64,000 nt of DNA from Acidimicrobiales bacterium (GCA_965116965.1 OZ220743.1:3958628-4022627); one strand, 5' to 3'; numbered from the stretch's first letter, positions 6,277 to 54,961 are shown. A program made the numbers and translations. Notes: a model not told the origin generated them from the letters alone.

Positions 6277-6846
6277 ATGACGGGGCCGCGGCGGGTGGTG
6301 GTGGCCATCAGCGGAGCCACCGGCGTGGTGTACGGGATCCGGGCGCTGGAGCTGCTGCGCGAGGTCGAAGATGTGGAGACCCACCTGGTGATGACCGGCC
6401 CCGGTCGCCAGACGCTCGCCTACGAGACTGACCTGGCGCCGGCCGATGTGGACGCCCGGGCGGATGTGGTCCACGGCTCGCGTGACATCGCCGCCCCGAT
6501 CTCGTCGGGCTCCTACCCCACTGCGGGGATGATCATCGCCCCCTGCTCCATCAAGATGCTCTCCGCGGTGGCCAACTCCTACTGTGCCGACCTCGTGTCG
6601 CGGGCGGCCGACGTGACGCTCAAGGAGCGGCGGCCGCTGGTGCTGATGGTGCGCGAGACGCCGCTGCACCTGGGCCATCTGCGCCTGATGGTCCAGGCCG
6701 CGGAGATCGGTGCGGTGGTGTACCCGCCGGTTCCGGCCTTCTACACCCGGCCGGAGTCGATCGAGGACCTGGTCACCCACTCGGTGGTGCGGGCCCTCGA
6801 GCATCTGGGCGTCGAGGTCGGCGACGTCCCCCGCTGGGGCGAATAG
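6277..6846 (+). CDS. ubiX: UbiX flavin prenyltransferase
   Basis: This is an internal ATG (6277) of track ORF 5989..6846. The product reads MTGPRRVVVAISGATGVVYGIRALELL...GMIIAPCSIKMLSAVANSYCADLVSRAADVTLKERRPLVLMVRETPLH..., which is classic UbiX/Pad1. The upstream extension of the track ORF overlaps ubiD out of frame and is rejected. Confidence 0.9.
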   Translation: MTGPRRVVVAISGATGVVYGIRALELLREVEDVETHLVMTGPGRQTLAYETDLAPADVDARADVVHGSRDIAAPISSGSYPTAGMIIAPCSIKMLSAVANSYCADLVSRAADVTLKERRPLVLMVRETPLHLGHLRLMVQAAEIGAVVYPPVPAFYTRPESIEDLVTHSVVRALEHLGVEVGDVPRWGE

Positions 6847-6965
6847 CCGCGGCAGCGCAGCGCGTCCCCAGCGGCCTCATCAGGATACAAAGATATTTTC
6901 ATGCTATTAGGTTGTAGGACACGCTGTCGTCGCTACGCTCCCTGAGGGAGCTGAGAATCTCTGAG

Positions 6966-7394
6966 GTGAGCCCGATGACAACGACCGACATGAGCGACAT
7001 GACCTCAGAGCAGCCGGCTGCCGATCGTGCCGCCGCGCTGTTCGCGGACGCCCGGGTACTGCACAACGCAGCGCTGGCCCGCCTGGAGGCCGGCGACGTC
7101 AGGGATGCCGCCGAGAAGGCGTGGTGCGCCACCAGGCGCGCCACCGACGGCCTCATCGTGGCCCGCACCGGCGAGGAGCCCGCGAAGTCCCCAATCACGA
7201 CGCGGGAGATGCAACGCCTCGCCGCCGACGACCCGGGCATCGACCGCCTCTCGGATCGCTACCACGTCGTGAGGGACACCCTGCACGGCGACTGCTTCTA
7301 CCTCGGTCTCTGCGAGCCGCTCGACCGCACCGAGCGCCGCGTACGCGACACCGTCGACCACATCGGAGAAGCCGAGTCCCTCGCGGCCGGCTAG
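6966..7394 (+). CDS. Hypothetical helical protein, possibly HEPN/PaREP1-like
   Basis: The 142-aa ORF follows the only AT-rich stretch of the core region (6870-6960). The segments ...AAEKAWCATRRATDGLIVA... and ...LHGDCFYLG... resemble PaREP1/HEPN-type four-helix proteins. There is no canonical Rx4-6H motif, so the call is weak. Confidence 0.35.
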   Translation: MSPMTTTDMSDMTSEQPAADRAAALFADARVLHNAALARLEAGDVRDAAEKAWCATRRATDGLIVARTGEEPAKSPITTREMQRLAADDPGIDRLSDRYHVVRDTLHGDCFYLGLCEPLDRTERRVRDTVDHIGEAESLAAG

Positions 7395-7432
7395 AGGACG
7401 CTGGCCGCGGCCTGCTCGGTCTGGGCCGCGCG

Positions 7433-9049
7433 TCAGGCCAGGCTGCGAAGGACGGCGTTGGCGGTGTTGCGGCCGGATGACCCCCAGATTCCAGACCCCG
7501 GATAGGTACCCGCGCCCGACAGGAACAGTCCGGGCACCGGCGCCCGGTACCGGCTCAGCTCGCGGCGCCGACCGAACAGCGACGACAGTGGGGAGCCCGC
7601 GTACGACGGCGTGTATCCCCGGGCCAGGTAGAACTCGCGCTCGTAGCGGTCGGGGGTCATGGTCCGGTAGCGGTCCACCGACTCGAGGAATCCGGGCTGC
7701 AGCAGGCCCGACCACACCTTCAGCCACCGGGCCGGCTCGGGCGAGTCGGCCCAGCCGCCCTCTATGTCATAGGGGGTGAACAGCGCCTCCAGGCTGAGCA
7801 CGTGGAGTCCGTCGCCACTGCGCATCGTCGGGTCCAGCACCGACGGCACGTTGGCCATCATGGTGGGCCGCTCAGCCACCCGGCCCAGGCTCCGCAGCCG
7901 GTGGGCGTCGGCCAACTCAGCCGCGGTGGGTGAGATGACGACGTTCGACTGGGCCGGATCGCGTCCTTCGAACAGATCGAGCAGAGCCGAATCCTCCAGA
8001 GCCGGGTATCGAGGGAGGTCGGTGATGACGGCGTCGATCTTGGACTGGTAGCCGTCGGTTGGGGTCTGCGATCGGGCCCGAGCGACGAAGCGGCGAGCCC
8101 CGCCGGTGGGCTCGGCGAGCCACCGCGACGCCACCGAGGCCGGATCGACAGCGGTCACCACCGCGGCCGCAGTGACTTCGGCGCCGTCGGCCAAGCGCAC
8201 GCCCTGCACGCCCCGGCCGTCGCCGAGCAAACCGGTCACCGCCGTGCCGCATCTCAAGACGCCTCCGGCCGCGGTGAACGAGGCGGCCAGCGCGTCGGTG
8301 AGCGCGCCGCTGCCGCCCACCGGGCGGCCCGTCTTGACCATGTGGCGCATGGCATAGGACGCGCCGGCCAGACCGGTGCCGGGTCTGTCTCCTGGAGCGC
8401 CCCAGACTGTGGGGCCGTTGGAAATGGCCGGCATGACCAGGGCTTCGTCATCGAAATAGGACCTCAGCACGTCCAGCGCGCCGGCCCGGCTCCACTGCAG
8501 CAGCCGGGCTCCGCCGCGGGCTCGGCGGGCGGCCAGCCGTGCCAGCATCCGTGGCGTGGACGCCGGCCCGGTGCCCATCTCCAGGATGAGTTCGGCGACC
8601 GGTCTGGCGTCGGCCAGATATCGGCGGTAGGCGGTGGCTTGCGCGGGCCGGTGGCGCCCGATGGACTCGATGGTGCGCTCGCTGTCGTTGAAGAACAGCC
8701 ACGGCGGGCTGCCGTCGTAGCCCATGTAGACGGTGGTCGGGTCGGCTTCCAGGTATCGCAACCCGTGGGCGGCCAGGTCCAGGTCGTCCATGAAGGGCAT
8801 GGCCCGCACCAGGGTGTGGTCGCAGCTGCAGATGTTGAAGCGGGCGTCCAGGTCGCTGACCGTGGAGGCGCAGCCCCCCACTTCGTCGCGGGCCTCCACC
8901 AGCAGGGTGTCCACTCCGGCCCGGGCCAGGTAGGCCGCGCAGATGAGGCCGTTGTGGCCGCCGCCCACCACCACGACGTCGGCGTCGCCGACGGTTCCGG
9001 TGCGGCTGGACCCGGCGCCGACCTCCGGAGCGACACCGGCGGCGGTCAT
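7433..9049 (-). CDS. NAD(P)/FAD-dependent oxidoreductase (phytoene desaturase/CrtI-like family)
   Basis: The start is taken at the internal ATG at 9049, giving MTAAGV...DADVVVVGGGHNGLICAAYLARAGVDTLLVEARDEVGGC, a Rossmann GxGxxG dinucleotide-binding N-terminus. This ATG overlaps the upstream yqeC stop as ATGA. The longer track ORF (to 9391) would overlap yqeC. Confidence 0.8.
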   Translation of the reverse strand: MTAAGVAPEVGAGSSRTGTVGDADVVVVGGGHNGLICAAYLARAGVDTLLVEARDEVGGCASTVSDLDARFNICSCDHTLVRAMPFMDDLDLAAHGLRYLEADPTTVYMGYDGSPPWLFFNDSERTIESIGRHRPAQATAYRRYLADARPVAELILEMGTGPASTPRMLARLAARRARGGARLLQWSRAGALDVLRSYFDDEALVMPAISNGPTVWGAPGDRPGTGLAGASYAMRHMVKTGRPVGGSGALTDALAASFTAAGGVLRCGTAVTGLLGDGRGVQGVRLADGAEVTAAAVVTAVDPASVASRWLAEPTGGARRFVARARSQTPTDGYQSKIDAVITDLPRYPALEDSALLDLFEGRDPAQSNVVISPTAAELADAHRLRSLGRVAERPTMMANVPSVLDPTMRSGDGLHVLSLEALFTPYDIEGGWADSPEPARWLKVWSGLLQPGFLESVDRYRTMTPDRYEREFYLARGYTPSYAGSPLSSLFGRRRELSRYRAPVPGLFLSGAGTYPGSGIWGSSGRNTANAVLRSLA

Positions 9050-9968: not shown

Positions 9969-10064
9969 GGAGGTGTCTGAGCGCCTGGTGGGCTCCCCCG
10001 CCTTCAAAGCGGGTGGGACGGGCGATCCCCGTCCGGCGGGTTCGATTCCCGTCCACCTCCGCCA
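9969..10064 (+). tRNA. selC: tRNA-Sec (anticodon UCA), encoded CCA end
   Basis: The gene is 96 nt. The 5' GGAGGTG pairs with CACCTCC, followed by G-CCA. A CCCGC/GCGGG stem carries the loop CTTCAAA, giving anticodon TCA. There is a long extra arm (GGACGGG-CGAT-CCCGTCC) and a T arm (GCGGG-TTCGATT-CCCGT). The layout and length are the same as E. coli selC. Confidence 0.85.
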
Positions 10065-45813: not shown

Positions 45814-47412
45814 CTACACGAGACCCTTCTCGCGAGCAGTGAGCCAAATCAAGACCACGGCGTCGGCACACGGCCCGGCGAGCGTTCTCGCTTCACGGGA
45901 CGACAACAGCAGATGCCGGTGGCTGACGAGGTTCCGGGTCGCGACCGCGGCAGCGAGCGTGTTCGCGATGACGTCGTCTCGTTCAGCGCCGACGGCGTGC
46001 GCCGCCTCGGCCAGACGTACGGCAAGCTGGTCGAGGTTCCCCTGCTTGTCCGATGTCTGGCCAGCACTGATCAACTGTCTGAGCGGAGCGAGCCAGGGCA
46101 ACCCTTCACCGAGAGTCATGACGAGTTTGGAGTACGGCATCCCGTGGGGCTTCTCTGATTTCTCGTGCTCGGCCTGTTCGTCGAGGACGCCGCGGGCGAG
46201 CTGTTCGCCCGACAGGGCCAGCAGCCTCAGTCCCCGGTGGAAGAAACCCGGGAATCGATCCCGGCGCAGTTCAGTGAGGCTGTATGAGTAGCGCTGGAGA
46301 CCGGAAAGTACCTCTAACAGATCGCGACGCAGGCAGAACTGCACAATCTCGTCGGGCATTGTGCCGGTGTCGCCGTGCTCGTCGGCGGACGCCGTCACGG
46401 AGCTCTGGTCGAGGATCGCCTTCAGGTTCTCCTTGGCGTCGCGCAGGACAGCCTCGACCGGATCCAACCAGCGCAGCTGTGTAGACAGGCCCGGTCCGAC
46501 ATGCTCCTCGGCAGCGGCGAGGAGGCCATCCCAGTCGTACTCGAACGCGTACCCGGCCAGCTTCTGGGCGTCGAGGAGGTAGTCCTCCGCGTCGTTGGCC
46601 AGCGCGATGCGCTCGTCGCGTCGGTAGGCGTCGATCAGGTGAGTGAGTTCGTGGAGGAACCGGAGGAACGCCGGCTCATCCAGGCCCGAGATCTCCAGGG
46701 ATCGTCGCGCCCAGGTTGTCACGGTCGTATCCAGCCGTTGTTGCGCTGGCTCCGGCAGTGTCACCTCGTCCACGCCGTCGAATGCCTCTTGGAGGGCAAT
46801 CTGGTCCGCTAACAGGAAGCGCTCTAGCGCCTCGAAGCCGTTGGCCATGCCTCGAAGCGACCGTATCGGCTCGGTATTGTCGGGTAGTCGATGCCAGCGC
46901 CACAGATCGTGAGACGAGTCGATGTGTCTCAGGAACCCCGCGTGCGCGTAGTAGTACTTCCGCTGACGGAGCCACTCGACGACATGGACCTGCCAAGGCG
47001 AGTAGTAGCGCTCGACTGTCTCCCGTTGCACGGTGAGCCCGTCCGGGGCCGTCACCGTGACCTTGGCGTCGGCGTCCCACGGCTCGAACGTGGTGCAGTC
47101 CGGAGTCAGCAGGAAGGGATTGTGCTCACGCTCCGCGTCAAACGGGTGCAGGCCATCGGCGCGGGGCCGCTGCAGCCTTCGCAACGCCTCGGGTGGCTCA
47201 AGATCCTCAGGGTTCTCCACCGGCCAGTCGTTGTTTCTCTGGGTCACGGCAAGGAGGTGGGCGGTCGGCTGGTGGCGGACCACCGCTGGCAGCAGCAGGC
47301 AGTGCTTCTCGTAGAACTCCAGTTCGTCATCCTCCAAGCGCTTCACGTTGAGCGACCTCGCGTGGGACTTGAAGCCCCGGAGTTCAATGAAGCGTCGGTC
47401 GTGTCGGTTCAT
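45814..47412 (-). CDS. Hypothetical protein (532 aa) with C-terminal HEPN-like RxxxxH motif
   Basis: This long ORF lies upstream of hsdM on the same strand. Its C-terminal helical region reads ...LAAAVATRNLVSHRHLLLS..., which contains R-N-x-x-x-H spacing as in HEPN RNase motifs. The rest of the protein is unrecognised. Confidence 0.5.
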   Translation of the reverse strand: MNRHDRRFIELRGFKSHARSLNVKRLEDDELEFYEKHCLLLPAVVRHQPTAHLLAVTQRNNDWPVENPEDLEPPEALRRLQRPRADGLHPFDAEREHNPFLLTPDCTTFEPWDADAKVTVTAPDGLTVQRETVERYYSPWQVHVVEWLRQRKYYYAHAGFLRHIDSSHDLWRWHRLPDNTEPIRSLRGMANGFEALERFLLADQIALQEAFDGVDEVTLPEPAQQRLDTTVTTWARRSLEISGLDEPAFLRFLHELTHLIDAYRRDERIALANDAEDYLLDAQKLAGYAFEYDWDGLLAAAEEHVGPGLSTQLRWLDPVEAVLRDAKENLKAILDQSSVTASADEHGDTGTMPDEIVQFCLRRDLLEVLSGLQRYSYSLTELRRDRFPGFFHRGLRLLALSGEQLARGVLDEQAEHEKSEKPHGMPYSKLVMTLGEGLPWLAPLRQLISAGQTSDKQGNLDQLAVRLAEAAHAVGAERDDVIANTLAAAVATRNLVSHRHLLLSSREARTLAGPCADAVVLIWLTAREKGLV

Positions 47413-47614
47413 GGGTCCCAGTCAATCGGGCGAGACTGAGCCGCGTGAGCGAGTGGACCCTGCCACGCGTTCGTCATCCGGGGGCTGGCCAACCCGACCC
47501 GGTGCCTACGAACTGGCAGAGGGGCTGTGGCCGACCTCTCGAAGGGGGACCCGCTAGTGAGTCACGCTGACTCAATGAGGGTCCACCAGAGCCTGCCCAA
47601 TACCCGGTGGGGGC

Positions 47615-48040
47615 TCAGTCTGGTGTGCAGGACTTGTGTTGTGCCGCTGTGTGGCGCACGGCCGCATCAGGATCGTCTGAGAGTCGGCGCAGCGCTGCTG
47701 GCGGGCAGGATGGATGCGCCGCTGCTTTGCGGCGCACCAACGGAGATGGATCTGCAGCGAGTCGCCGCAGCAGGGATCCCGGACAGTTCGGGTCCTCAGC
47801 CGCATGACACCGGTCGTCGTCGTTGGGGCTTCGGGCCAGCTGGTCGAGCGCCTGAGCGGGATCAGGCGCTCGTTCGTTCGGGTCAGCACGGCGTTCGCGC
47901 GCCGTTGCCTCTAGTGCTTGGCGGACCTCGTCGACATCGCAGCCTGTGCTGTGGGCTATTGCCTCTGCGGACAGGGTTGGTGTCGTTCGCTTCATGCGTC
48001 GGATCGTCTTGTTGGTCGCTGCGGACTCGGTGTCGCTCAT
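47615..48040 (-). CDS. Small protein with LRV/HEAT-like repeats
   Basis: The 141-aa ORF contains repeats (...LLRRLAADPSPLVRRKAAAHPSCPPAALRRLSDDPDAAVRHTAAQH...) like those of the 596-aa protein at 50743-52533. It is the last gene of the minus-strand cluster. Confidence 0.55.
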   Translation of the reverse strand: MSDTESAATNKTIRRMKRTTPTLSAEAIAHSTGCDVDEVRQALEATARERRADPNERAPDPAQALDQLARSPNDDDRCHAAEDPNCPGSLLRRLAADPSPLVRRKAAAHPSCPPAALRRLSDDPDAAVRHTAAQHKSCTPD

Positions 48041-48059
48041 TTGTGTTCCTCCTCGGTTT

Positions 48060-49493
48060 TCAGGTTGGGGGGTGTTCAGTGATGTTGATGGTCTGGATCC
48101 AGCCGGGGATTTGGTCGATGCGGTGCTGGTCGGTGAGGGCCGCGATGACGGTGTGTGTGCCGGGGGGTGGGGTGTGGGGCCAGGGGGTCCAGCCGTCGGT
48201 GATGACGATGATGGCGTCGGGGTTGTTCTCTGCGGCGGTGGTGATGCCTGCGGCCATGTCAGTACCGCCTGCGCCGGTGAGGGTGATGTGGTTGGGGTTG
48301 TGGATGTGTTGGTCGGTGTGGACTTCGGTGTCTACTGACAGGACTCGGATGCTGTCGCCGGGTGTGACGGTTGTGATGATGGCTTTGATCTCGGCGAGGG
48401 CTCGGCCTAGTTCGTGGGGGCTCATGGATCCCGACGTGTCGACGACGACGGTGATCGCTGGGCTGGGGCGGGTGAGCGCGGGCCGCAGGACGGGGTCGTG
48501 GGATTGTTGGCGGCGCGAGGGGCGCTGCCAGGTGTAGTCGGCGGTGCCGGTCTTGTGGTGTGCGGCTGTTCGCACCGCGGTGGCGAGCTGTTGTTGCCAG
48601 TTGATTTGCGGGTGCAGTGTCTGGTTGGCCCAGCGTTGGAGCCCTTCGGGCACCGAGTCGGCGCCGTGGTGTTTACGGTGCTGGGTGACGGCGGTGGCGA
48701 CGGCGTGTTTGAGCAGGGTCTGGTCGAGGTCGGTGAGCGGCGGGGTGTCGTCGTGGAGTTCGTGGGGGAGGTGTTGGCTGTGGCTGCCGGATCCGCAGTC
48801 GACATAGATTTCGATAGTGGTGGTGTTGTCGCGCAGGTGCTTCCAGTAGCGCTCGGCGGGCAGGCATTCGTCGAGGTCGAAGAGATCTGGCAGCAGCGCG
48901 GTGTCGTCGAGGAGGTCGTCGTAGTAGAGGTCGTCGTTGATCTCGCAGTCCGCGGCGACGTTCCACAAGATGGCGGTGGCGGCGTCGACGCCGGCGTTGC
49001 GGGCTCTTTGTGCGTGGTCGCGTAGCACGTGGTTGACGGCATGTATGAGCTCTGCGGCGGCCTGCTCGACGGTGAGGGATTCGAGGTGCTGGGAGCTGGT
49101 GTAGATGCGCCAGCCTTCGTCGATGCCTAGCCGCATCGGTGCGGCGGTCGGGACGATGGGGCATGAGAAGACGGCTTTGGAGTAGTAGGGGCGGTTGGCG
49201 GCGATCCACAGCCTGGCTGCTCGCAGGCGCCGCTGGGCCTCACCGCTGAGCCGCTGGGGCCGCCGCGGCGGCGGTGTTGGGGGTTGGGGCGTGTCTGGAT
49301 CGTGATGGTGCTGTAGGACTTCGCGCTCGGTGCCGGGGTGTGGGCTGTGTGCGCCGCCCGGTTCAGCGCCGGGGTGTGGGCTGTGTGCGCCGCCGGGTCC
49401 GGCGCCGGGGTGTGGGCTGTGTGCGCCGCCGGGTCGAACTTGGCGAGGTGTGCGGTGCCGGCGGTGGCGGTGGTGGGGGTCGTGGCGGCTCAT
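48060..49493 (-). CDS. vWA-domain protein with N-terminal metallopeptidase-like domain (DUF2201-type MoxR partner)
   Basis: The start is taken at the internal ATG at 49493, downstream of the MoxR stop. A MIDAS motif is present (VVVDTSGSMSP). The upstream segment reads ...AAELIHAVNHVLRDH...WNVAADCEINDDL. The N-terminus carries three copies of GAHSPHPGxxPG, encoded by a 36-bp repeat. Confidence 0.75.
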   Translation of the reverse strand: MSRHDPHHRHRRHRTPRQVRPGGAHSPHPGAGPGGAHSPHPGAEPGGAHSPHPGTEREVLQHHHDPDTPQPPTPPPRRPQRLSGEAQRRLRAARLWIAANRPYYSKAVFSCPIVPTAAPMRLGIDEGWRIYTSSQHLESLTVEQAAAELIHAVNHVLRDHAQRARNAGVDAATAILWNVAADCEINDDLYYDDLLDDTALLPDLFDLDECLPAERYWKHLRDNTTTIEIYVDCGSGSHSQHLPHELHDDTPPLTDLDQTLLKHAVATAVTQHRKHHGADSVPEGLQRWANQTLHPQINWQQQLATAVRTAAHHKTGTADYTWQRPSRRQQSHDPVLRPALTRPSPAITVVVDTSGSMSPHELGRALAEIKAIITTVTPGDSIRVLSVDTEVHTDQHIHNPNHITLTGAGGTDMAAGITTAAENNPDAIIVITDGWTPWPHTPPPGTHTVIAALTDQHRIDQIPGWIQTINITEHPPT

Positions 49494-49537
49494 GGCGTCT
49501 GCGCTGCGGGATGTCGGGTCGTGTGGATGTTTGGGGG

Positions 49538-50680
49538 TTATGTGTCGGGGTCGAGGAGGCCGGCGTCGGTGAGGATCTCGGCGAAGATCTCGTGTCCGGG
49601 CGGCAGAGCCACCGCGGCGGGTCTGGTGCGGGCGAGGCGCATCGCAGCCGACGCGGCGACGTCGGGGGCTCCGCAGCCCGCGGCGACGATGCACACCTTG
49701 AACGCGTCGCGCCAGGCTTTGGGATCCGCGGCAGCGGCGACCACGACGGCGTCGAGCGCGGCGAGTTGTTGGTCTGTGCGGGACAGTTCACCGAACGCGG
49801 CGGGATGTGCGAGCAGTTCTTTGGGGTCGGGCAGGTCGAGGTTGCGCAGATAGGCCAGGTACTCAGCCGCGGCGCCTTCTCCCACCAGCGCGCATGCCAG
49901 CAGCAGGCGCACGTCGTCGGACACTTCGGTGGTGTCGGCGATGGCGAGACAGTCCGCGAGGCGTTCCCATGACCTTGGCGAGGGCCAGCCCCGCACCTCG
50001 GTGCCGTTGGAGGGGACTTCGCACAACAGGTTCGGGCGGGCGTCGAGGAACGATGTCTGGAGCCATTTGATGATCTCGACGCTGTAGGGGTCCACCGCGG
50101 ACGGGTCGATGTCGGCGGGTGTGGGGTCGGGCCACCCGGTGAGGTAGCCGGTCTTCCAGTCGTTGACGCTGACGGGCCAGTCGAGGTGCGCGAACCGGTT
50201 CGCCAACGGTGCGGAGAGGTCCCAGGCGGCGCTGTTGTGCGCCGGCGGGTTGGCCGCAGCCGCGAACCGCACCTCGCTGCCAAGGTCGAGGTCGCCGACG
50301 CGGCCGTCCAACACGACACGCATCAGCGCGTTCTGGGTGGCGGGCGCGGCGGTGTTGATCTCATCGAAGAACACCAGCGACACCCCGTCACATCCCGCTG
50401 CGGTGTGGGCCCAGGCGGGAGGCTCGAACACCACACCGGATGCGGTGCGCACCGGCAGCCCCGAGAAGTCAGTCGGGTCATGGATCGACGCGATCACCGA
50501 CACCGTGGGCCATCCGGCTTGTTGTGCGAACGCCTCGATAGTGCGGGTCTTGCCGGTGCCGGGGTCGCCCCACAACAGCACCGGAATGTTCGCGGACAGC
50601 AGGATCTGCATCGCGACGAGAGTGTCGCCCTGGGTGGGGCCCGCCGTAGTGGGCGGACTGGGTTGTGTGGTCGCAGCCAT
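49538..50680 (-). CDS. MoxR-like AAA+ ATPase (AAA_5)
   Basis: The 380-aa ORF has a Walker A motif (VLLWGDPGTGKTR) and a Walker B/sensor region (LVFFDEINTAAPATQNALMRVVLDGRV). Confidence 0.85.
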   Translation of the reverse strand: MAATTQPSPPTTAGPTQGDTLVAMQILLSANIPVLLWGDPGTGKTRTIEAFAQQAGWPTVSVIASIHDPTDFSGLPVRTASGVVFEPPAWAHTAAGCDGVSLVFFDEINTAAPATQNALMRVVLDGRVGDLDLGSEVRFAAAANPPAHNSAAWDLSAPLANRFAHLDWPVSVNDWKTGYLTGWPDPTPADIDPSAVDPYSVEIIKWLQTSFLDARPNLLCEVPSNGTEVRGWPSPRSWERLADCLAIADTTEVSDDVRLLLACALVGEGAAAEYLAYLRNLDLPDPKELLAHPAAFGELSRTDQQLAALDAVVVAAAADPKAWRDAFKVCIVAAGCGAPDVAASAAMRLARTRPAAVALPPGHEIFAEILTDAGLLDPDT

Positions 50681-50742
50681 CGTCAGATCCCTTTCTCAGT
50701 CGAGGGTGTGCGCTCCGGTGTGGGCGCCCGTGTTTGGGCGTG

Positions 50743-52533
50743 TCATCTGGCGTCGTACGGGGATGCGGCGCCGGCCGCGGTGCGGGCGGGGGCGTCGGCT
50801 GGGGTGTCGGATGGGGCGGGGTCGCGGGTGCGGCGCCGAGAGGCTGCGGTGTGGGTGCGGCGGCGGCCGGTCTCGGCTGCGGAGGCGGCGCGTACCCAGT
50901 AGTCGACGTCGCGGCTGAGGGTGTCCAGCACCGGCTGCGGGGTGCGGTGGTTGTGGCACACGCAGCACCGCACGTCGCGGTCGTCGTCGGTGGCGAGCTT
51001 GCGCAGCAGTCTTGGCGAGGTGTTGGGGTGCAGCGCGACACCGGCGCGCACCGCGTGGTCCTCATGGGCTGCCAGGGTGCCGAGCTCGCTGCGGGGCATG
51101 TTGGTGTTCTGTGCGGCTGAGCTGCTGACGTCGGGGTCCTTGTCGCCGGTGAGGCCCAGCAGCGTCTCGACCGGCGCCGCGGTGTTGGAGGCGAGGCAGT
51201 GACGTACCCACCAGTAGTCGTCTGCGGCCAACGCTTCGAGCACCCCCGGTGGTGTGTGGGGGTGGAATGCGGCTGCGGCGCGCACCTCTCCGCAGTCGTC
51301 TGTGGCCAGCAGCTCCAGCACCTGCGGCGGGGTCTGCTCGTTGTGCGCGACACCCTGTCGCACCTCAATCTTGGGATCAGTGGCCAGCACAGCCAATGCG
51401 TCGGCTCCGATCGGGCGTGCGGCAACCTCGGCGCGCACCCGTTTGGCCCGGTCACCCACACACGCGGCGACAGGCTCCAGCGGAGTGTTGGCGTTGGCGG
51501 CGGCCGCGGCGCGCACCTGCGAGAACCGGTCTGCCAGCAGCGCCTCAAGCACCTGCGGTGACGTAGAGGGGTTGGCTGCGACGTTTCGGCGCACCCACAC
51601 GTCGGGATCCTCTGCCAGGGTCTCCAACAGCCGCGCCGGTGCCGCCTCGGCGTGCGCCACCGCGGAGCGCACCTGAGACGACTCGTCACCGCACAGCCGC
51701 CGCAGCGCCGATGTCGGCACCTTCGGGTGCCACGCGGCCACATTGCGCACCTCCCAGTCACGACTGCGGGCCAGCACACCCAACAGCGCTGGTCTGGCCC
51801 GGTGGTTCTGGGCTGCCCGCAACCCGGGGTGCCCGGCGCCGATTGTGGGCTGCGCCAGACGGCCCAGCATCCGAGCCGGCGTGCTGGGATTCGATGCGAT
51901 CAGGTCTGTGACCTCGACGTCGCCATAGTGGTCCTCGACGATCCATTCGAGCACCGTGCGCGACACCGCTGGGTCAGACGCCGCGGCCATAGCCGACAGC
52001 CGCGGGTCGCGGTGGCCGGCGAGTCGTTCCCAGAACACCGCCGGCATCTCCGACATCCAATGGGTGTCGCGATCGGAGGTCCGCCATCTGTGGTGATGGG
52101 GCACATGCCATGACCACCAGCCCGCCCCCGGCAACAGGCCCCGCACCAGATTCGAATCCAGCCGCGCCGCCAGCGCATGTCCCAGCCAACGCGACAGGCC
52201 CTCGTCGTTCGCCGACACGCACGCGAACGCGGCCGCTCCGCACAGCTCCGCGGGCACATGCACCCGCCACAGCCGCTCAGGCTCCGCAGCCGCGATCACC
52301 GACAGCCGGTCGTTCAACCACCTCACATCAGCCGGCTCCACCAGACCCGCCTCCAGCGTCGCCGCCAACGCCCGCAACCTCCCCAGCGCGCCGCGCACCC
52401 CACACAGCGCCTCCAACAGACGCACCTCGGCCTCATTGGCGACCACCCAGCCGCCGTCGCCGAGCTCCAACACGCCGCGCGCGCCGCCAACCGACACCAC
52501 CCGGCGAAGCCTCCGGCCGCTCACCGCGCACAC
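50743..52533 (-). CDS. Leucine-rich-repeat-variant (LRV)/HEAT-like repeat protein with unknown N-terminal domain of about 230 aa
   Basis: The ORF is 596 aa from a GTG start. It has more than 10 repeats of the type ...ATDPKIEVRQGVAHNEQTPPQVLELLATDDCGEVRAAAAFHPHTPPGVLEALAADD.... The start codon is uncertain. Confidence 0.65.
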   Translation of the reverse strand: MCAVSGRRLRRVVSVGGARGVLELGDGGWVVANEAEVRLLEALCGVRGALGRLRALAATLEAGLVEPADVRWLNDRLSVIAAAEPERLWRVHVPAELCGAAAFACVSANDEGLSRWLGHALAARLDSNLVRGLLPGAGWWSWHVPHHHRWRTSDRDTHWMSEMPAVFWERLAGHRDPRLSAMAAASDPAVSRTVLEWIVEDHYGDVEVTDLIASNPSTPARMLGRLAQPTIGAGHPGLRAAQNHRARPALLGVLARSRDWEVRNVAAWHPKVPTSALRRLCGDESSQVRSAVAHAEAAPARLLETLAEDPDVWVRRNVAANPSTSPQVLEALLADRFSQVRAAAAANANTPLEPVAACVGDRAKRVRAEVAARPIGADALAVLATDPKIEVRQGVAHNEQTPPQVLELLATDDCGEVRAAAAFHPHTPPGVLEALAADDYWWVRHCLASNTAAPVETLLGLTGDKDPDVSSSAAQNTNMPRSELGTLAAHEDHAVRAGVALHPNTSPRLLRKLATDDDRDVRCCVCHNHRTPQPVLDTLSRDVDYWVRAASAAETGRRRTHTAASRRRTRDPAPSDTPADAPARTAAGAASPYDAR

Positions 52534-52656
52534 CCCCGAAACCGGCTGCGGCGCGCGCGTCGCCGGCGGTGCGCCTGTGCGTCGCTCCGGCCCGACACCC
52601 GTCGCGCCGTCCGCCGCGCAGGCCCGACACCCGACCGGGATCTATATTCCCAGAAC

Positions 52657-52672
52657 ATCAGCATATGCTGAT
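52657..52672. promoter_or_regulatory. Perfect 16-bp palindrome ATCAGCATATGCTGAT in a divergent AT-rich intergenic region (candidate operator)
   Basis: The palindrome was read directly at 52657-52672. It lies between the LRV gene start (52533, minus) and the XRE gene (about 52745, plus), within the AT-rich stretch tctatattcccagaacatcagcatatgctgattatacg. Confidence 0.5.
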
Positions 52673-52744
52673 TATACGTGCACCGGGTCCCGGCGCCACC
52701 ATGGAACACCCCCGAACCCCCCGCGGCGGGTACTGTCACCTGTC

Positions 52745-53077
52745 GTGGCGCCCAAGGCCCCCAGCGGCCCGCATGGCAAGTACCGGCGGCTCAAGCTGCG
52801 CAGCCAACCCAAAGACCACCTCATCGCGGGCCACGCCTGGCCCCACGGACGCCTCACCCCGGCCGCGCCCAAAGAGGCCCGCCTGGTCCAAGAGCTCGTC
52901 AAACGCCTCAAAGAAGCCGTCGCGGACCGCAGCCTCGAGGAGATCGAACACCTAAGCGGAGTCAACAAGACCTCCATCAGCCGCCTGCTGAGAGGCGAGT
53001 CATGGGGCACGCTGCCCGTCATCGCCCGACTCGAACACATCCTCGACACCGACCTCTGGGGCAACGAACACCGATAA
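52745..53077 (+). CDS. XRE-family helix-turn-helix regulator
   Basis: The C-terminal 60 aa read ...RSLEEIEHLSGVNKTSISRLLRGESWGTLPVIARLEHILDTDLWG, a Cro/C1-type HTH. The start is provisionally placed at the in-frame GTG at 52745. The long track ORF (from 52436) runs through the promoter and the LRV gene. Confidence 0.6.
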   Translation: MAPKAPSGPHGKYRRLKLRSQPKDHLIAGHAWPHGRLTPAAPKEARLVQELVKRLKEAVADRSLEEIEHLSGVNKTSISRLLRGESWGTLPVIARLEHILDTDLWGNEHR

Positions 53078-53078
53078 G

Positions 53079-53192
53079 CCCCACCATCGGGCAGCATCCC
53101 CACCATCGGGCAGCATCCCCACCATCGGGCAGCATCCCCACCATCGGGCAGCATCCCCACCATCGGGCAGCATCCCCACCATCGGGCAGCAG
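53079..53192. repeat. Tandem array, 19-bp unit CCCCACCATCGGGCAGCAT x6
   Basis: By manual indexing the units start at 53079, 53098, 53117, 53136, 53155 and 53174; the last unit ends in G instead of T. The array begins 2 nt after the XRE stop codon. Confidence 0.9.
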
Positions 53193-53230: not shown

Positions 53231-53398
53231 GGCGTGTATGCGCAACCGCGCGGCGTGCGTTTGCAACGGCCCGGCGGGTATACGCAACCGCTCGGCGGGT
53301 ATACACAACGGCCCGGCGGGTATACGCAACCGGTCGGCGGGTATACACAACCGCTCGGCGGGTATACGCAACCGGTCGGCGGGTATACGCAACCTCTG
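53231..53398. repeat. Tandem array, 21-bp unit GGCGGGTATACGCAACCGnTC x8 (iteron-like, GTATAC core)
   Basis: Units occur every 21 bp from 53231. The first two are degenerate (GGCGTGTATGCGCAACCGCGC and GGCGTGCGTTTGCAACGGCCC). The other six each carry GTATAC. Confidence 0.9.
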
Positions 53399-53592: not shown

Positions 53593-54961
53593 CTATGTGT
53601 GTGTCACGTCGATGTCGGCGCCGAGCTGTGTGAACTTGTCCAGGACGCTGTCGTAGCCGCGTTCGAGGTGGTGCACCCCTGACCGCAGGCTGTCGCCTGT
53701 GGCTGTCACCGCGGCGACGGCGAGCCCGAACCCGGCGCGGATGTCTTCCATGACGACTTCGGTGCCGTGGATCTCAGTCGGTCCGGCCACCAGCGCGGAG
53801 TGGCGGTGCCGGCCGGCGCCGAACCGGCAGCCGTTGGCGCCGAGGCAGCCGTTGAAGAGCTGGACGGTGGCGCCCATGTTGTTGAGCTGCTGGGTGCAGC
53901 CGAGACGGTCCTCGAAGACCGTCTCATACACCGCCGACACGCCGTTGGCTCAGGTGAGCGCGGCGGCCAGAGGCGGCTGCCAGTCGGTGGCGAACCCCGG
54001 GTAGGGGCCCGTGGAGATTCGCGATCGGATCGAGGCCTGTGGGGGCTTCTGCTTCGATGCGGCCGTCGGCGTCGATGGTGACCGTCGCTGCGAGGCGTCG
54101 CATCAGCGCGATCGCAGGCGACACGCGGCTCGGGTCACAGCCAACGACCGCGACCTTGCCTTGGGTCGCGTTCGCGGCCGCGAGGTAGGAGAACGCTTCG
54201 ACGCGGTGGCCTGCGATGTGCTGGCGGCTGGGCTGGAGGCGTTGCACGCCGTCTATGACGTAGCGCCCGTCCCTCGGCGGGTTCGATGATGGCGCCCATG
54301 GGTTGCAGGAACTGGATCAGCTCCTGTATCTCGGGCTCGACCGCGGCGTTGTGCAACACGGTGCGGCCCTCAGCTCTCACCGCGGCCAACAGCACCGTCT
54401 CGGTGGCTCCGACGCTGGGATACGGCAGCGTGACGTCGGCGCCGTGCGGCTCTCCCTGTGCGCTGATGCCGTCGCTGTCCACCGTCACGTGCGCGCCCGT
54501 CGCGGTGAGCGCGTCGCGATGGAAGTCCACGGGCCGCAGCCCGATCCCGTCGCCGCCCGCCACAGGCACCCGGGCCTCCCCGAAGCGGTGCAACAGCACC
54601 GGCAGACACAGAATCGGCATGCAGGCTCACCAGCGTCGATGCGTCCACCACCCCACGGCCCGACCCGACCGCCACGCCCGCGCCGACGGCCGCGAGCACG
54701 GCTGCGGTCACGCGGCACATCAGCGCCGGCGGGCACGTTGTCGAACTCGCAGACGCCGTCGGTCAGGCACGCCGCGATCATCAGCTTCGTGACGGCGTTC
54801 CTAGCGCCCGCAACGACAACAGTCCCCGCCAGCGAGACGCTGGAGCGCGCATACCAGATGCGGTCCCGTGTCGCCGCGAACTCCTCGACCAGCGCCGACT
54901 CCAACCCCCGAGAACCCTCCTCGGAGCCACCCGCAGCGGGGGCGGCGCGACGGCGGGCCAA
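53593..54961 (-). pseudogene. murA-like (UDP-GlcNAc 1-carboxyvinyltransferase / EPSP-synthase fold) gene broken by multiple frameshifts
   Basis: MurA-like segments appear in order but in different frames. They are ...LAGTVVVAGARNAVTKLMIAACLTDGVCEFDNVPAGADV (54961 frame), ...VTAAVLAAVGAGV..VVDASTL, and ...LLHRFGEARVPVAGGDGIGLRPVDFH...SVGATETVLLAAVRAEGRTVLHNAAVEPEIQELIQFL (54620 frame). These are followed by ...HRVEAFSYLAAANATQGKVAVVG (54247 frame) and ...EDRLGCTQQLNNMGATV...HHLERGYDSVLDKFTQLGADI (53940 frame). Confidence 0.7.

Follow-up and report, generated by a model that had tools for sequence, protein, structure and literature searches.

A three-gene cassette of an LRV-repeat protein, a MoxR-clade ATPase and a zincin-vWA pseudo-peptidase in Acidimicrobiia, and its relation to a gene pair of phages and plasmids

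The window analysed here, a stretch of 64,000 nucleotides from an Acidimicrobiales bacterium (GCA_965116965.1, OZ220743.1:3958628-4022627), contains at 47615-52533 four adjacent genes, designated A, B, C and D, which encode an LRV-repeat protein, an AAA+ ATPase, a protein with a zincin-like and a vWA domain, and a small LRV protein. The question raised by this locus is whether such a cluster takes part in biological conflict and, if so, whether it belongs to the systems already described. Four MoxR-vWA ternary families (VMAP, iSTAND, FtsH and β-propeller) were proposed by Kaur, Burroughs, Iyer and Aravind in 2020 (PMC7159879), defined by the third component together with a vWA protein carrying C-terminal effectors; trypsin and caspase domains fused to the vWA are often catalytically dead in these families (PMC7159879). 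The initial annotation of the window, made from the sequence alone, had regarded B and C as the core of such a system and the LRV proteins as its third component. The analysis showed that the cassette belongs by homology to the DUF2201/MoxR-like pair family, in which it represents a pseudo-enzyme variant joined by a new third partner. Its most likely role, a plausible one, is that of a conflict module directed against mobile elements or phages and situated in a variable island; it would be analogous to the MoxR-vWA ternary systems and not a member of them.

All four open reading frames (ORFs) are present on the minus strand, in the same direction, and the gaps of 62 bp (A/B), 44 bp (B/C) and 19 bp (C/D) read off the sequence agree with those first reported. 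Eighty loci from species-representative genomes, gathered through homologues of C, were compared. In 77 of them B immediately precedes C, which upholds the earlier view of the MoxR-vWA pair as the core of the cluster. At least 16 independent loci show the order A-B-C, at identities of 31-80% (down to 31-43%), and an A-type gene, consisting of the N-terminal domain and LRV repeats, adjoins B-C in every locus of Acidimicrobiia with enough flanking sequence, usually directly upstream of B; the proposal of an LRV protein as third component was thus well founded. Four divergent homologues of the A N-domain lying on informative contigs all showed the arrangement A-B-C, one of them with two tandem A genes. 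The position of A is taken in the Streptomyces-type cassettes (58 loci, within L014-L081) by a gene about 1.4 kb upstream of B, which encodes a conserved protein X of ~430-500 residues (about 450) without a Pfam domain, and which was found in Streptomyces, Kitasatospora, Amycolatopsis, Lentzea, Micromonospora and other genera. Every other flanking gene family is confined to 10 or fewer of the 80 loci. With recurrence thus limited to B, C and either A or X, the conserved unit is a three-gene cassette whose third member has been swapped between lineages: cellular Actinomycetota added a third gene to the B-C pair, A in Acidimicrobiia and X in Streptomyces-type genomes. Homology between A and X was considered and rejected; the profile-profile probability was below 1%, only a weak BLASTP match recurred (E~0.06), and the two proteins were treated as unrelated. 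The C-terminal part of X contains a conserved motif rich in Cys and His, RLVECRGAxHRIGL...DHDPAEIRREELLAALGG...PC.

Protein C is a two-domain adaptor, in which a zincin-fold domain lacking the catalytic Glu in this lineage is followed by a vWA domain. It could be aligned end to end with 190+ homologues, and its DUF2201_N and DUF2201 matches both exceed the cut-offs. The zincin motif of the DUF2201 family is HExxHxxRxH; the corresponding metal-ligand motif in the window is H151-A-V-N-H155...H160 (HAVNHVLRDH, 49014-49043), with the catalytic Glu changed to Ala. Of 81 genome loci, 73 have kept HExxH, all X-type loci among them, as have 71 of 76 loci from viruses or plasmids. Substitutions of Glu fall into three groups, namely the clade of the window (Val or Ala), the two copies from 'Ca. 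Poriferisodalis' (Val) and L163 (Asn). These three groups stand apart in a neighbour-joining tree, each among lineages that retain Glu, and therefore at least three independent losses are indicated; all of them fall within the LRV-associated (A-type) clade. The His ligands and the metal-ion-dependent adhesion site (MIDAS) are always retained. Having lost Glu and kept the His ligands, C of the window is accordingly a member of the DUF2201 family by homology, but a pseudo-enzyme. The DUF2201 assignment, the MIDAS and the HxxxH of the initial annotation were all recovered; the degeneracy of HxxxH is, however, a derived and lineage-specific loss and not a trait of the family.

The MIDAS of C is composed of DTSGS (48426-48440), followed by GGTDM and ITDG, and all 81 genome loci retain it. 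The vWA domain is located at the C-terminus behind the zincin-like domain, and no domain follows it. Comparison of its model by Foldseek gave the VWA of CLCA1 as the best match (3e-4), then the MIDAS domain of MDN1 (6e-3) and NorD in NorQD (3.5e-2); the zincin-like domain, which is helical in its well-predicted model, showed a weak fold match to selecase, a minigluzincin. A profile of C found no sequence match in the PDB, and no functional study was found in the literature on DUF2201, PF13203 and PF09967. The columns of the linker motif DYTWQRPSRR are invariant in the A1 and A3 alignments. The start of C is most plausibly the ATG at 49493, and the N-terminal region that follows has 14 His residues and an isoelectric point (pI) of 11.8. 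An in-frame tandem repeat of 36 bp x2.9 in this region (49332-49435) encodes (GGAHSPHPGAxP)x3, and its length differs among close homologues.

Judged by its motifs, B is a catalytically intact ATPase of the MoxR/midasin clade, with Walker A (GDPGTGKT), Walker B (LVFFDE) and the sensor and Arg motifs (AAANP, LANRF) all preserved. Pfam matches were obtained for AAA (8e-7) and AAA_5 (9e-7; 29.4 bits, cut-off 22), and the score for AAA_3, the family of MoxR proper, was below the gathering threshold (21.9 bits against 27). B is thus a MoxR-clade or AAA_5-type ATPase and not a canonical MoxR, so that the earlier assignment as a MoxR-type (AAA_5) ATPase stands, though AAA_3 is not reached. The nearest solved relative is the AAA domain of midasin (2.4e-8). 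Matches of B in PADLOC were generic and weak AAA models only (IetA, mad8 and RtcR; E>=3e-5), and bpMoxR was represented only by a weak or faint precomputed match on two distant B homologues.

Protein A consists of a novel N-terminal domain and an LRV solenoid (Pfam LRV 6.7e-37, with LRV_2 and HEAT in addition). At least 11 clear repeat units, about 14 in total, were detected with a hidden Markov model of the repeat unit from residue ~183/213 to 553, in accordance with the more than ten repeats originally counted. Because residues ~163-228 already match generic LRV proteins and the repeats start at ~183/213, the non-repeat domain comprises about 165 residues and not the 230 first assigned to it. 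It had no match in Pfam, NCBIfam or PADLOC and is rare, an exhaustive HMMER search of 1.84 billion representatives giving 67 clusters at E<1e-10. Two apparent matches, P0182 and P0249, were rejected as Ig-repeat proteins, and a scan of JGI metagenomes with patterns of the domain gave no true matches. The AlphaFold2 (AF2) model of the domain has a predicted local distance difference test (pLDDT) score of 87.3 and a predicted template modelling (pTM) score of 0.84; Foldseek comparison of this model with the PDB yielded no relative (best E=3, template modelling score, TM, <0.21), and none was found in BFVD. The few near-invariant residues, W29, E36, C105 and R124, suggest a docking domain more than an enzyme. 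DNA binding by the solenoid found no support, the LRV region being slightly acidic (pI 6.0); the C-terminal tail (residues 556-596) is basic, with a pI of 11.7. A diverges fastest of the three proteins, with 32-62% identity where B has 57-79% and C 43-69%. Six loci (L003, L005, L008, L009, L013 and L161) contain duplicated copies of A or fusions of it with other domains, and extra paralogues were found in the first five of these. An A paralogue with an added N-terminal DprA-like domain (DNA_processg_A) follows directly after C in L005, L009 and P0183; the genes encoding this DprA-like/A N-domain/LRV fusion lie at 9426-11843 in L005 and ~9188-11527 in L009.

The B-C pair is ancient and is carried by phages and plasmids. 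Relatives of C with 22-37% identity occur on 70 plasmids, mainly from Rhodococcus, Mycobacterium and Streptomyces, in 144 phage genomes, e.g. N4-like Litunavirus, jumbo phages of the PA5oct type and Thermus phage phiFa, and in 72 viral contigs of IMG/VR. A B-like ATPase gene is located near C in almost all viral loci, and A, LRV or X genes were found in none of the viral and plasmid loci. The pair of Litunavirus lies between the early genes and the genes of the helicase and DNA polymerase. A pair of MoxR and a metallopeptidase-vWA protein was described by Iyer et al. in 2021 (PMC7824862) in group 2.2 jumbo phages, where a role in virion assembly was proposed.

The comparison with the ternary systems of Kaur et al. 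(PMC7159879) showed several common features: a MoxR-clade AAA+ gene adjoining a gene for a vWA protein with MIDAS, a faster-evolving and lineage-specific third partner, a dead peptidase fused to the vWA, and repeat scaffolds, among which HEAT and TPR are common there. The patchy and mobile distribution of those systems in Actinomycetota may have its counterpart in the non-syntenic flanks, arm location, duplication and disruption of the cassette, although the flanks of the X-type look ordinary. Unlike in these systems, the vWA of C is C-terminal to the zincin and not N-terminal to an array of effectors, no effector repertoire is present, and phages and plasmids have the B-C lineage in common with the cassette. 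Kaur et al. (PMC7159879) make no mention of LRV or DUF2201. A Pfam scan of A, C and D (E<=0.01) gave only LRV, HEAT and DUF2201 families, so that neither the VMAP-type domain sought in A nor iSTAND, FtsH or β-propeller domains were found. Membership in the described systems, as the initial annotation had it, is contradicted by the C-terminal vWA and by the separate B-C lineage common to phages and plasmids. The phage and plasmid pair resembles the cassette in the combination of DUF2201_N with a DUF2201 vWA, the DxSxS MIDAS and the adjacent B-like AAA+ gene; it consists, however, of two genes with an active HExxH, whereas the version in the window is chromosomal and ternary, has a dead peptidase and lies beside an XRE gene.

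In the classical MoxR-vWA pairs, a hexamer of the AAA+ protein is combined with a vWA adaptor whose MIDAS grips the client. An AAA+ protein with a MIDAS-bearing vWA partner is likewise what unites the cassette with CbbQ-CbbO, NorQ-NorD, RavA-ViaA, CoxD-CoxE and Rea1/midasin, but, unlike these, it has no linked operon of a metalloenzyme or other client, an extra zincin in C and a dedicated LRV partner. The domain order of C is also that of eukaryotic CLCA, in which a self-cleaving zincin metalloprotease is followed by vWA; CLCA, however, is secreted, eukaryotic and without an AAA+ partner, and since only its vWA part was matched, there is no evidence for direct homology of the peptidase domains.

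By analogy with CbbQ/CbbO, NorQ/NorD and the MIDAS of Rea1, C may dock on a hexamer of B and use its MIDAS to grip an acidic residue or a peptide of a client. The fast-evolving and often duplicated solenoid of A would select or scaffold this client, and hydrolysis of ATP by B would remodel or release the complex. The captured client would probably be cleaved in relatives with an intact HExxH, whereas the lineage of the window could do no more than hold or remodel it. Repression of the operon by the XRE protein would act through a palindrome overlapping the putative -10 box.

The coordinates of the cassette, its domains and its control region are collected in the table.

Table. Genes, protein domains and control region of the cassette, in positions of the 64,000-nucleotide window
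Feature	Position	Strand	Description
A	50743-52533	-	596 aa, novel N-domain + LRV repeats
A N-domain, residues 1-165	52039-52533	-	three-stranded β-sheet, then helical bundle (AF2 model)
A LRV solenoid, residues ~183-553	50875-51987	-	~14 HEAT-like repeats; disordered basic tail 556-596
B	49538-50680	-	380-aa AAA+ ATPase, MoxR/midasin/dynein (helix-2-insert) clade
C	48060-49493	-	DUF2201_N zincin-like + vWA; maximal ORF to 49694
C N-terminus, residues 1-82	49248-49493	-	disordered, His/Arg/Pro-rich; pLDDT <50
C DUF2201_N zincin-like, residues 83-316	48546-49247	-	DUF2201_N 3.4e-22; pLDDT mostly >90
C linker, residues 317-344	48462-48545	-	near-invariant DYTWQRPSRR; pLDDT <50, predicted flexible
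C vWA, residues 345-477	48060-48461	-	complete MIDAS; DUF2201 5.4e-21, VWA_2
D	47615-48040	-	141-aa small LRV protein
Divergent intergenic control region	52534-52678	.	palindrome + TATAAT
XRE-type helix-turn-helix regulator gene	52679-53077	+	weak HTH_3/HTH_31; divergent from A

The XRE gene adjoins A in close relatives also, being divergent in the window, in L009 (78% identity) and in L159, and co-directional in L005. Its HTH_3 and HTH_31 matches are weak (residues 155-207 of the maximal ORF), and the orthologue in L159 matches HTH_3 with 5.6e-5. The public call gives a protein of 132 residues; an in-frame GTG near 52745 would give about 110. The perfect 16-bp palindrome ATCAGCATATGCTGAT (52657-52672) overlaps a perfect TATAAT (52671-52676, minus strand) directed toward A, and the two are a putative operator and promoter. 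The divergent XRE gene postulated by the initial annotation is therefore present and a TATAAT faces A; as to the promoter which the two genes were said to share, a consensus scan of the intergenic region returned no full -35/-10 pair. Tandem repeats, a perfect one of 19 bp x5.9 (53079-53191) and one of 21 bp x7.8 (53231-53394), lie just 3' of the XRE gene.

Protein D contains the same LRV repeats as A (Pfam LRV 7e-12), as had been noted at the outset; a region of about 60 residues at the N-terminus precedes the repeats at residues 77-124, two of which are clear and one degenerate. Its ATG is preceded 8 nt upstream by a GGAGG Shine-Dalgarno sequence. As a conserved member of the cassette D had to be rejected, no counterpart being present in the 80 genome loci, the closest relative included; the 121-aa gene downstream of C in that relative is unrelated to it. 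D is an accessory gene. A palindrome, TGAGTCAGCGTGACTCA, lies at 47558-47574, about 40 bp past the stop codon of D; no T-run follows it, and it is therefore not a canonical terminator. Between the cassette and hsdM an orphan ORF of 532 residues (45814-47412, minus strand) has no match in Pfam, PADLOC or NCBIfam, and it was rejected as a part of the system since it is absent at all related loci.

The DNA of the window is of the high-GC actinobacterial type (GC 0.58-0.75) and matches without difference a 216-kb metagenome contig in ENA; the nearest genomes are metagenome-assembled genomes of Acidimicrobiales and 'Ca. Aldehydirespirator'. A stretch of lower GC at 10-48 kb is of the defence type; it begins at a tRNA-SeC gene (9969-10064, plus strand), followed by an AT-rich spacer, and in its ~38 kb encodes two giant STAND NTPases of 1540 and 2178 residues, PLD-like and ThiF/E1-like proteins, an SMC-like ATPase with an RDD protein, a YgjP zincin, a GajB/UvrD-like helicase and a complete type I restriction-modification (RM) system, hsdRSM. 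A second copy of the 3' 27-mer of tRNA-SeC, as an island attachment (att) site, was not found within the window. The GC of the cassette, 0.68-0.70, is nearer to that of the host flanks than to that of the low-GC island. An EPSP-synthase-family gene (MurA/AroA-like, 53596-54904, minus strand) is broken over at least three reading frames and is orthologous (55-78% identity) to an intact 515-aa gene adjoining the L165 cassette; either it has decayed to a pseudogene or the 5x-coverage assembly contains a frameshift error here. At 56-60 kb the GC is 0.74 and the AT skew -0.35 to -0.49, and long ORFs there have no Pfam matches.

The cassette is accessory and patchy; the few Acidimicrobiia that carry it have it in variable DNA rich in defence genes. 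Universal conservation, which the initial annotation had named as the mark of a housekeeping chaperone, was not observed, the cassette being patchily distributed and its flanks non-syntenic across loci. The neighbours of A-type cassettes are type I RM, the GajB-like helicase and STAND NTPases in the window; an AAA_15/21 ATPase, C5 methylases, UvrD-PDDEXK, HATPase_c_3 and DUF5677 in L158 and L159; and, in L161-L165, Schlafen-like/HATPase_c_4, IS110 and STAND-TPR, DUF4365 and DUF3800, type III-like RM, HicB and GmrSD, as well as SIR2_2 and a giant STAND NTPase. The 77 neighbours considered in the genome loci included several transposases and PADLOC matches, and also housekeeping genes. The X-type cassettes are located on the chromosome arms in 5 of 5 complete Streptomyces chromosomes. 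Only around A-type cassettes does a clear, though unquantified, defence-island signal emerge. Two cassette copies are present in one genome (L010, L012). A group II intron reverse transcriptase/maturase gene (6500-7951) lies directly upstream of an orphan C in L002; this copy of the cassette looks disrupted, since neither B nor A occurs within 8 kb. A gene for a calcineurin-like metallophosphoesterase of about 300 residues, absent from the window, adjoins the cassette in three genomes in differing orientations (L003 9363-10277; L004 2920-3798, minus strand; L010 4063-4845, minus strand), and is a candidate accessory gene or effector.

It is an even question whether the XRE gene and A-B-C(-D) constitute the accessory operon of a three-component AAA+/vWA remodelling machine in a conflict role; that the function is truly anti-phage or anti-plasmid has at best an even chance and perhaps somewhat less. 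A number of observations weigh against a conflict role. Proteins A, C and D have no match in PADLOC-DB 2.0 or NCBIfam, and no recognisable effector domain is present, as the initial annotation had already remarked. The parent pair, B-C, occurs on plasmids and also in phages, both in jumbo phages and in the replication modules of N4-like phages; the module hence need not be defensive. Some copies of Acidimicrobiia lie beside the housekeeping genes panC/coaX and ComM-DprA, while the genes flanking the X-type are those ordinary for the arms (NmrA, MFS, P450, methyltransferases), and neither defence genes nor transposases are enriched among them. The defence-island association itself is a raw count over ~7-18 loci, without a background statistic, and the contig has a coverage of about 5x, with one neighbouring gene broken in frame.

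To our knowledge, every MoxR-vWA pair characterised so far serves as a chaperone in maturation or remodelling, and it might be supposed that B and C form a dedicated system of this kind, which folds, assembles or processes the LRV proteins A and D, or a complex scaffolded by them, with no role in conflict. A is always found with B-C and often in several copies, as clients could be, the Streptomyces-type cassettes lie among ordinary metabolic genes, and no effector is present. Against this, linkage to an enzyme or complex in need of maturation is not conserved; the third partner is swapped, A against X, without detectable similarity, and the A-type, patchy and rare, recurs near RM, STAND, SIR2 and GmrSD genes. 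The chaperone explanation was therefore regarded as unlikely. Much the same standing, well on the improbable side, was given to the view that the cluster was left behind by a mobile element or is carried as its cargo, in which case B-C performs a task of the phage or plasmid (assembly or processing of virion or replisome, or counter-defence) and A is an add-on. It would account for the relatives of C, with a B-like ATPase gene beside them, in phages (144 genomes), IMG/VR (72 contigs) and plasmids (70), for the Litunavirus pair beside helicase and DNA polymerase genes and the proposal of virion assembly (PMC7824862), and for the location of the cluster in an island starting at tRNA-SeC. The viral and plasmid loci, however, are without A, X and LRV and only 22-37% identical, the A-B-C loci examined have no genes for phage structural proteins, integrases or conjugation at their flanks, the GC of the cassette resembles that of the host flanks more than that of the island, and the loss of Glu is confined to the cellular A-type clade.

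High-GC DNA gives many spurious ORFs, the coverage is low, and neither D nor the 532-aa ORF is found outside this contig, so that the four genes might be mere neighbours or artefacts. This is very improbable in view of the strong Pfam matches of A, C and D, the order A-B-C in at least 16 loci, the short co-directional gaps and the Shine-Dalgarno sequence at D; for A-B-C the reading as mere neighbours is effectively refuted, and it might hold at most for D. A more far-reaching form of the conflict-module interpretation, which must be called doubtful, would place A-B-C in a fifth class of ternary immune systems with MoxR and vWA: Acidimicrobiia would have domesticated a module of the phage type for morphogenesis or processing and joined it to a new sensor, A, with its novel-fold N-domain and diversifying LRV solenoid, and the peptidase of the module would then have been repeatedly inactivated into a substrate trap for proteins of invaders.

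If the conflict-module interpretation is true, the ternary logic of MoxR and vWA would no longer be limited to the four described families and would reach a lineage with a core common to phages and plasmids, and the cassette would be a concrete case of host-virus exchange of a chaperone-protease module. The N-domain of A is a confidently modelled domain without a structural relative, and the at least three independent losses of Glu, found only in company with an LRV partner, offer a natural experiment that could reveal the working of pseudo-proteases in AAA+/vWA machines. The B-C pair of phages and plasmids is widespread, and results obtained on the cassette would bear on the function of that pair.

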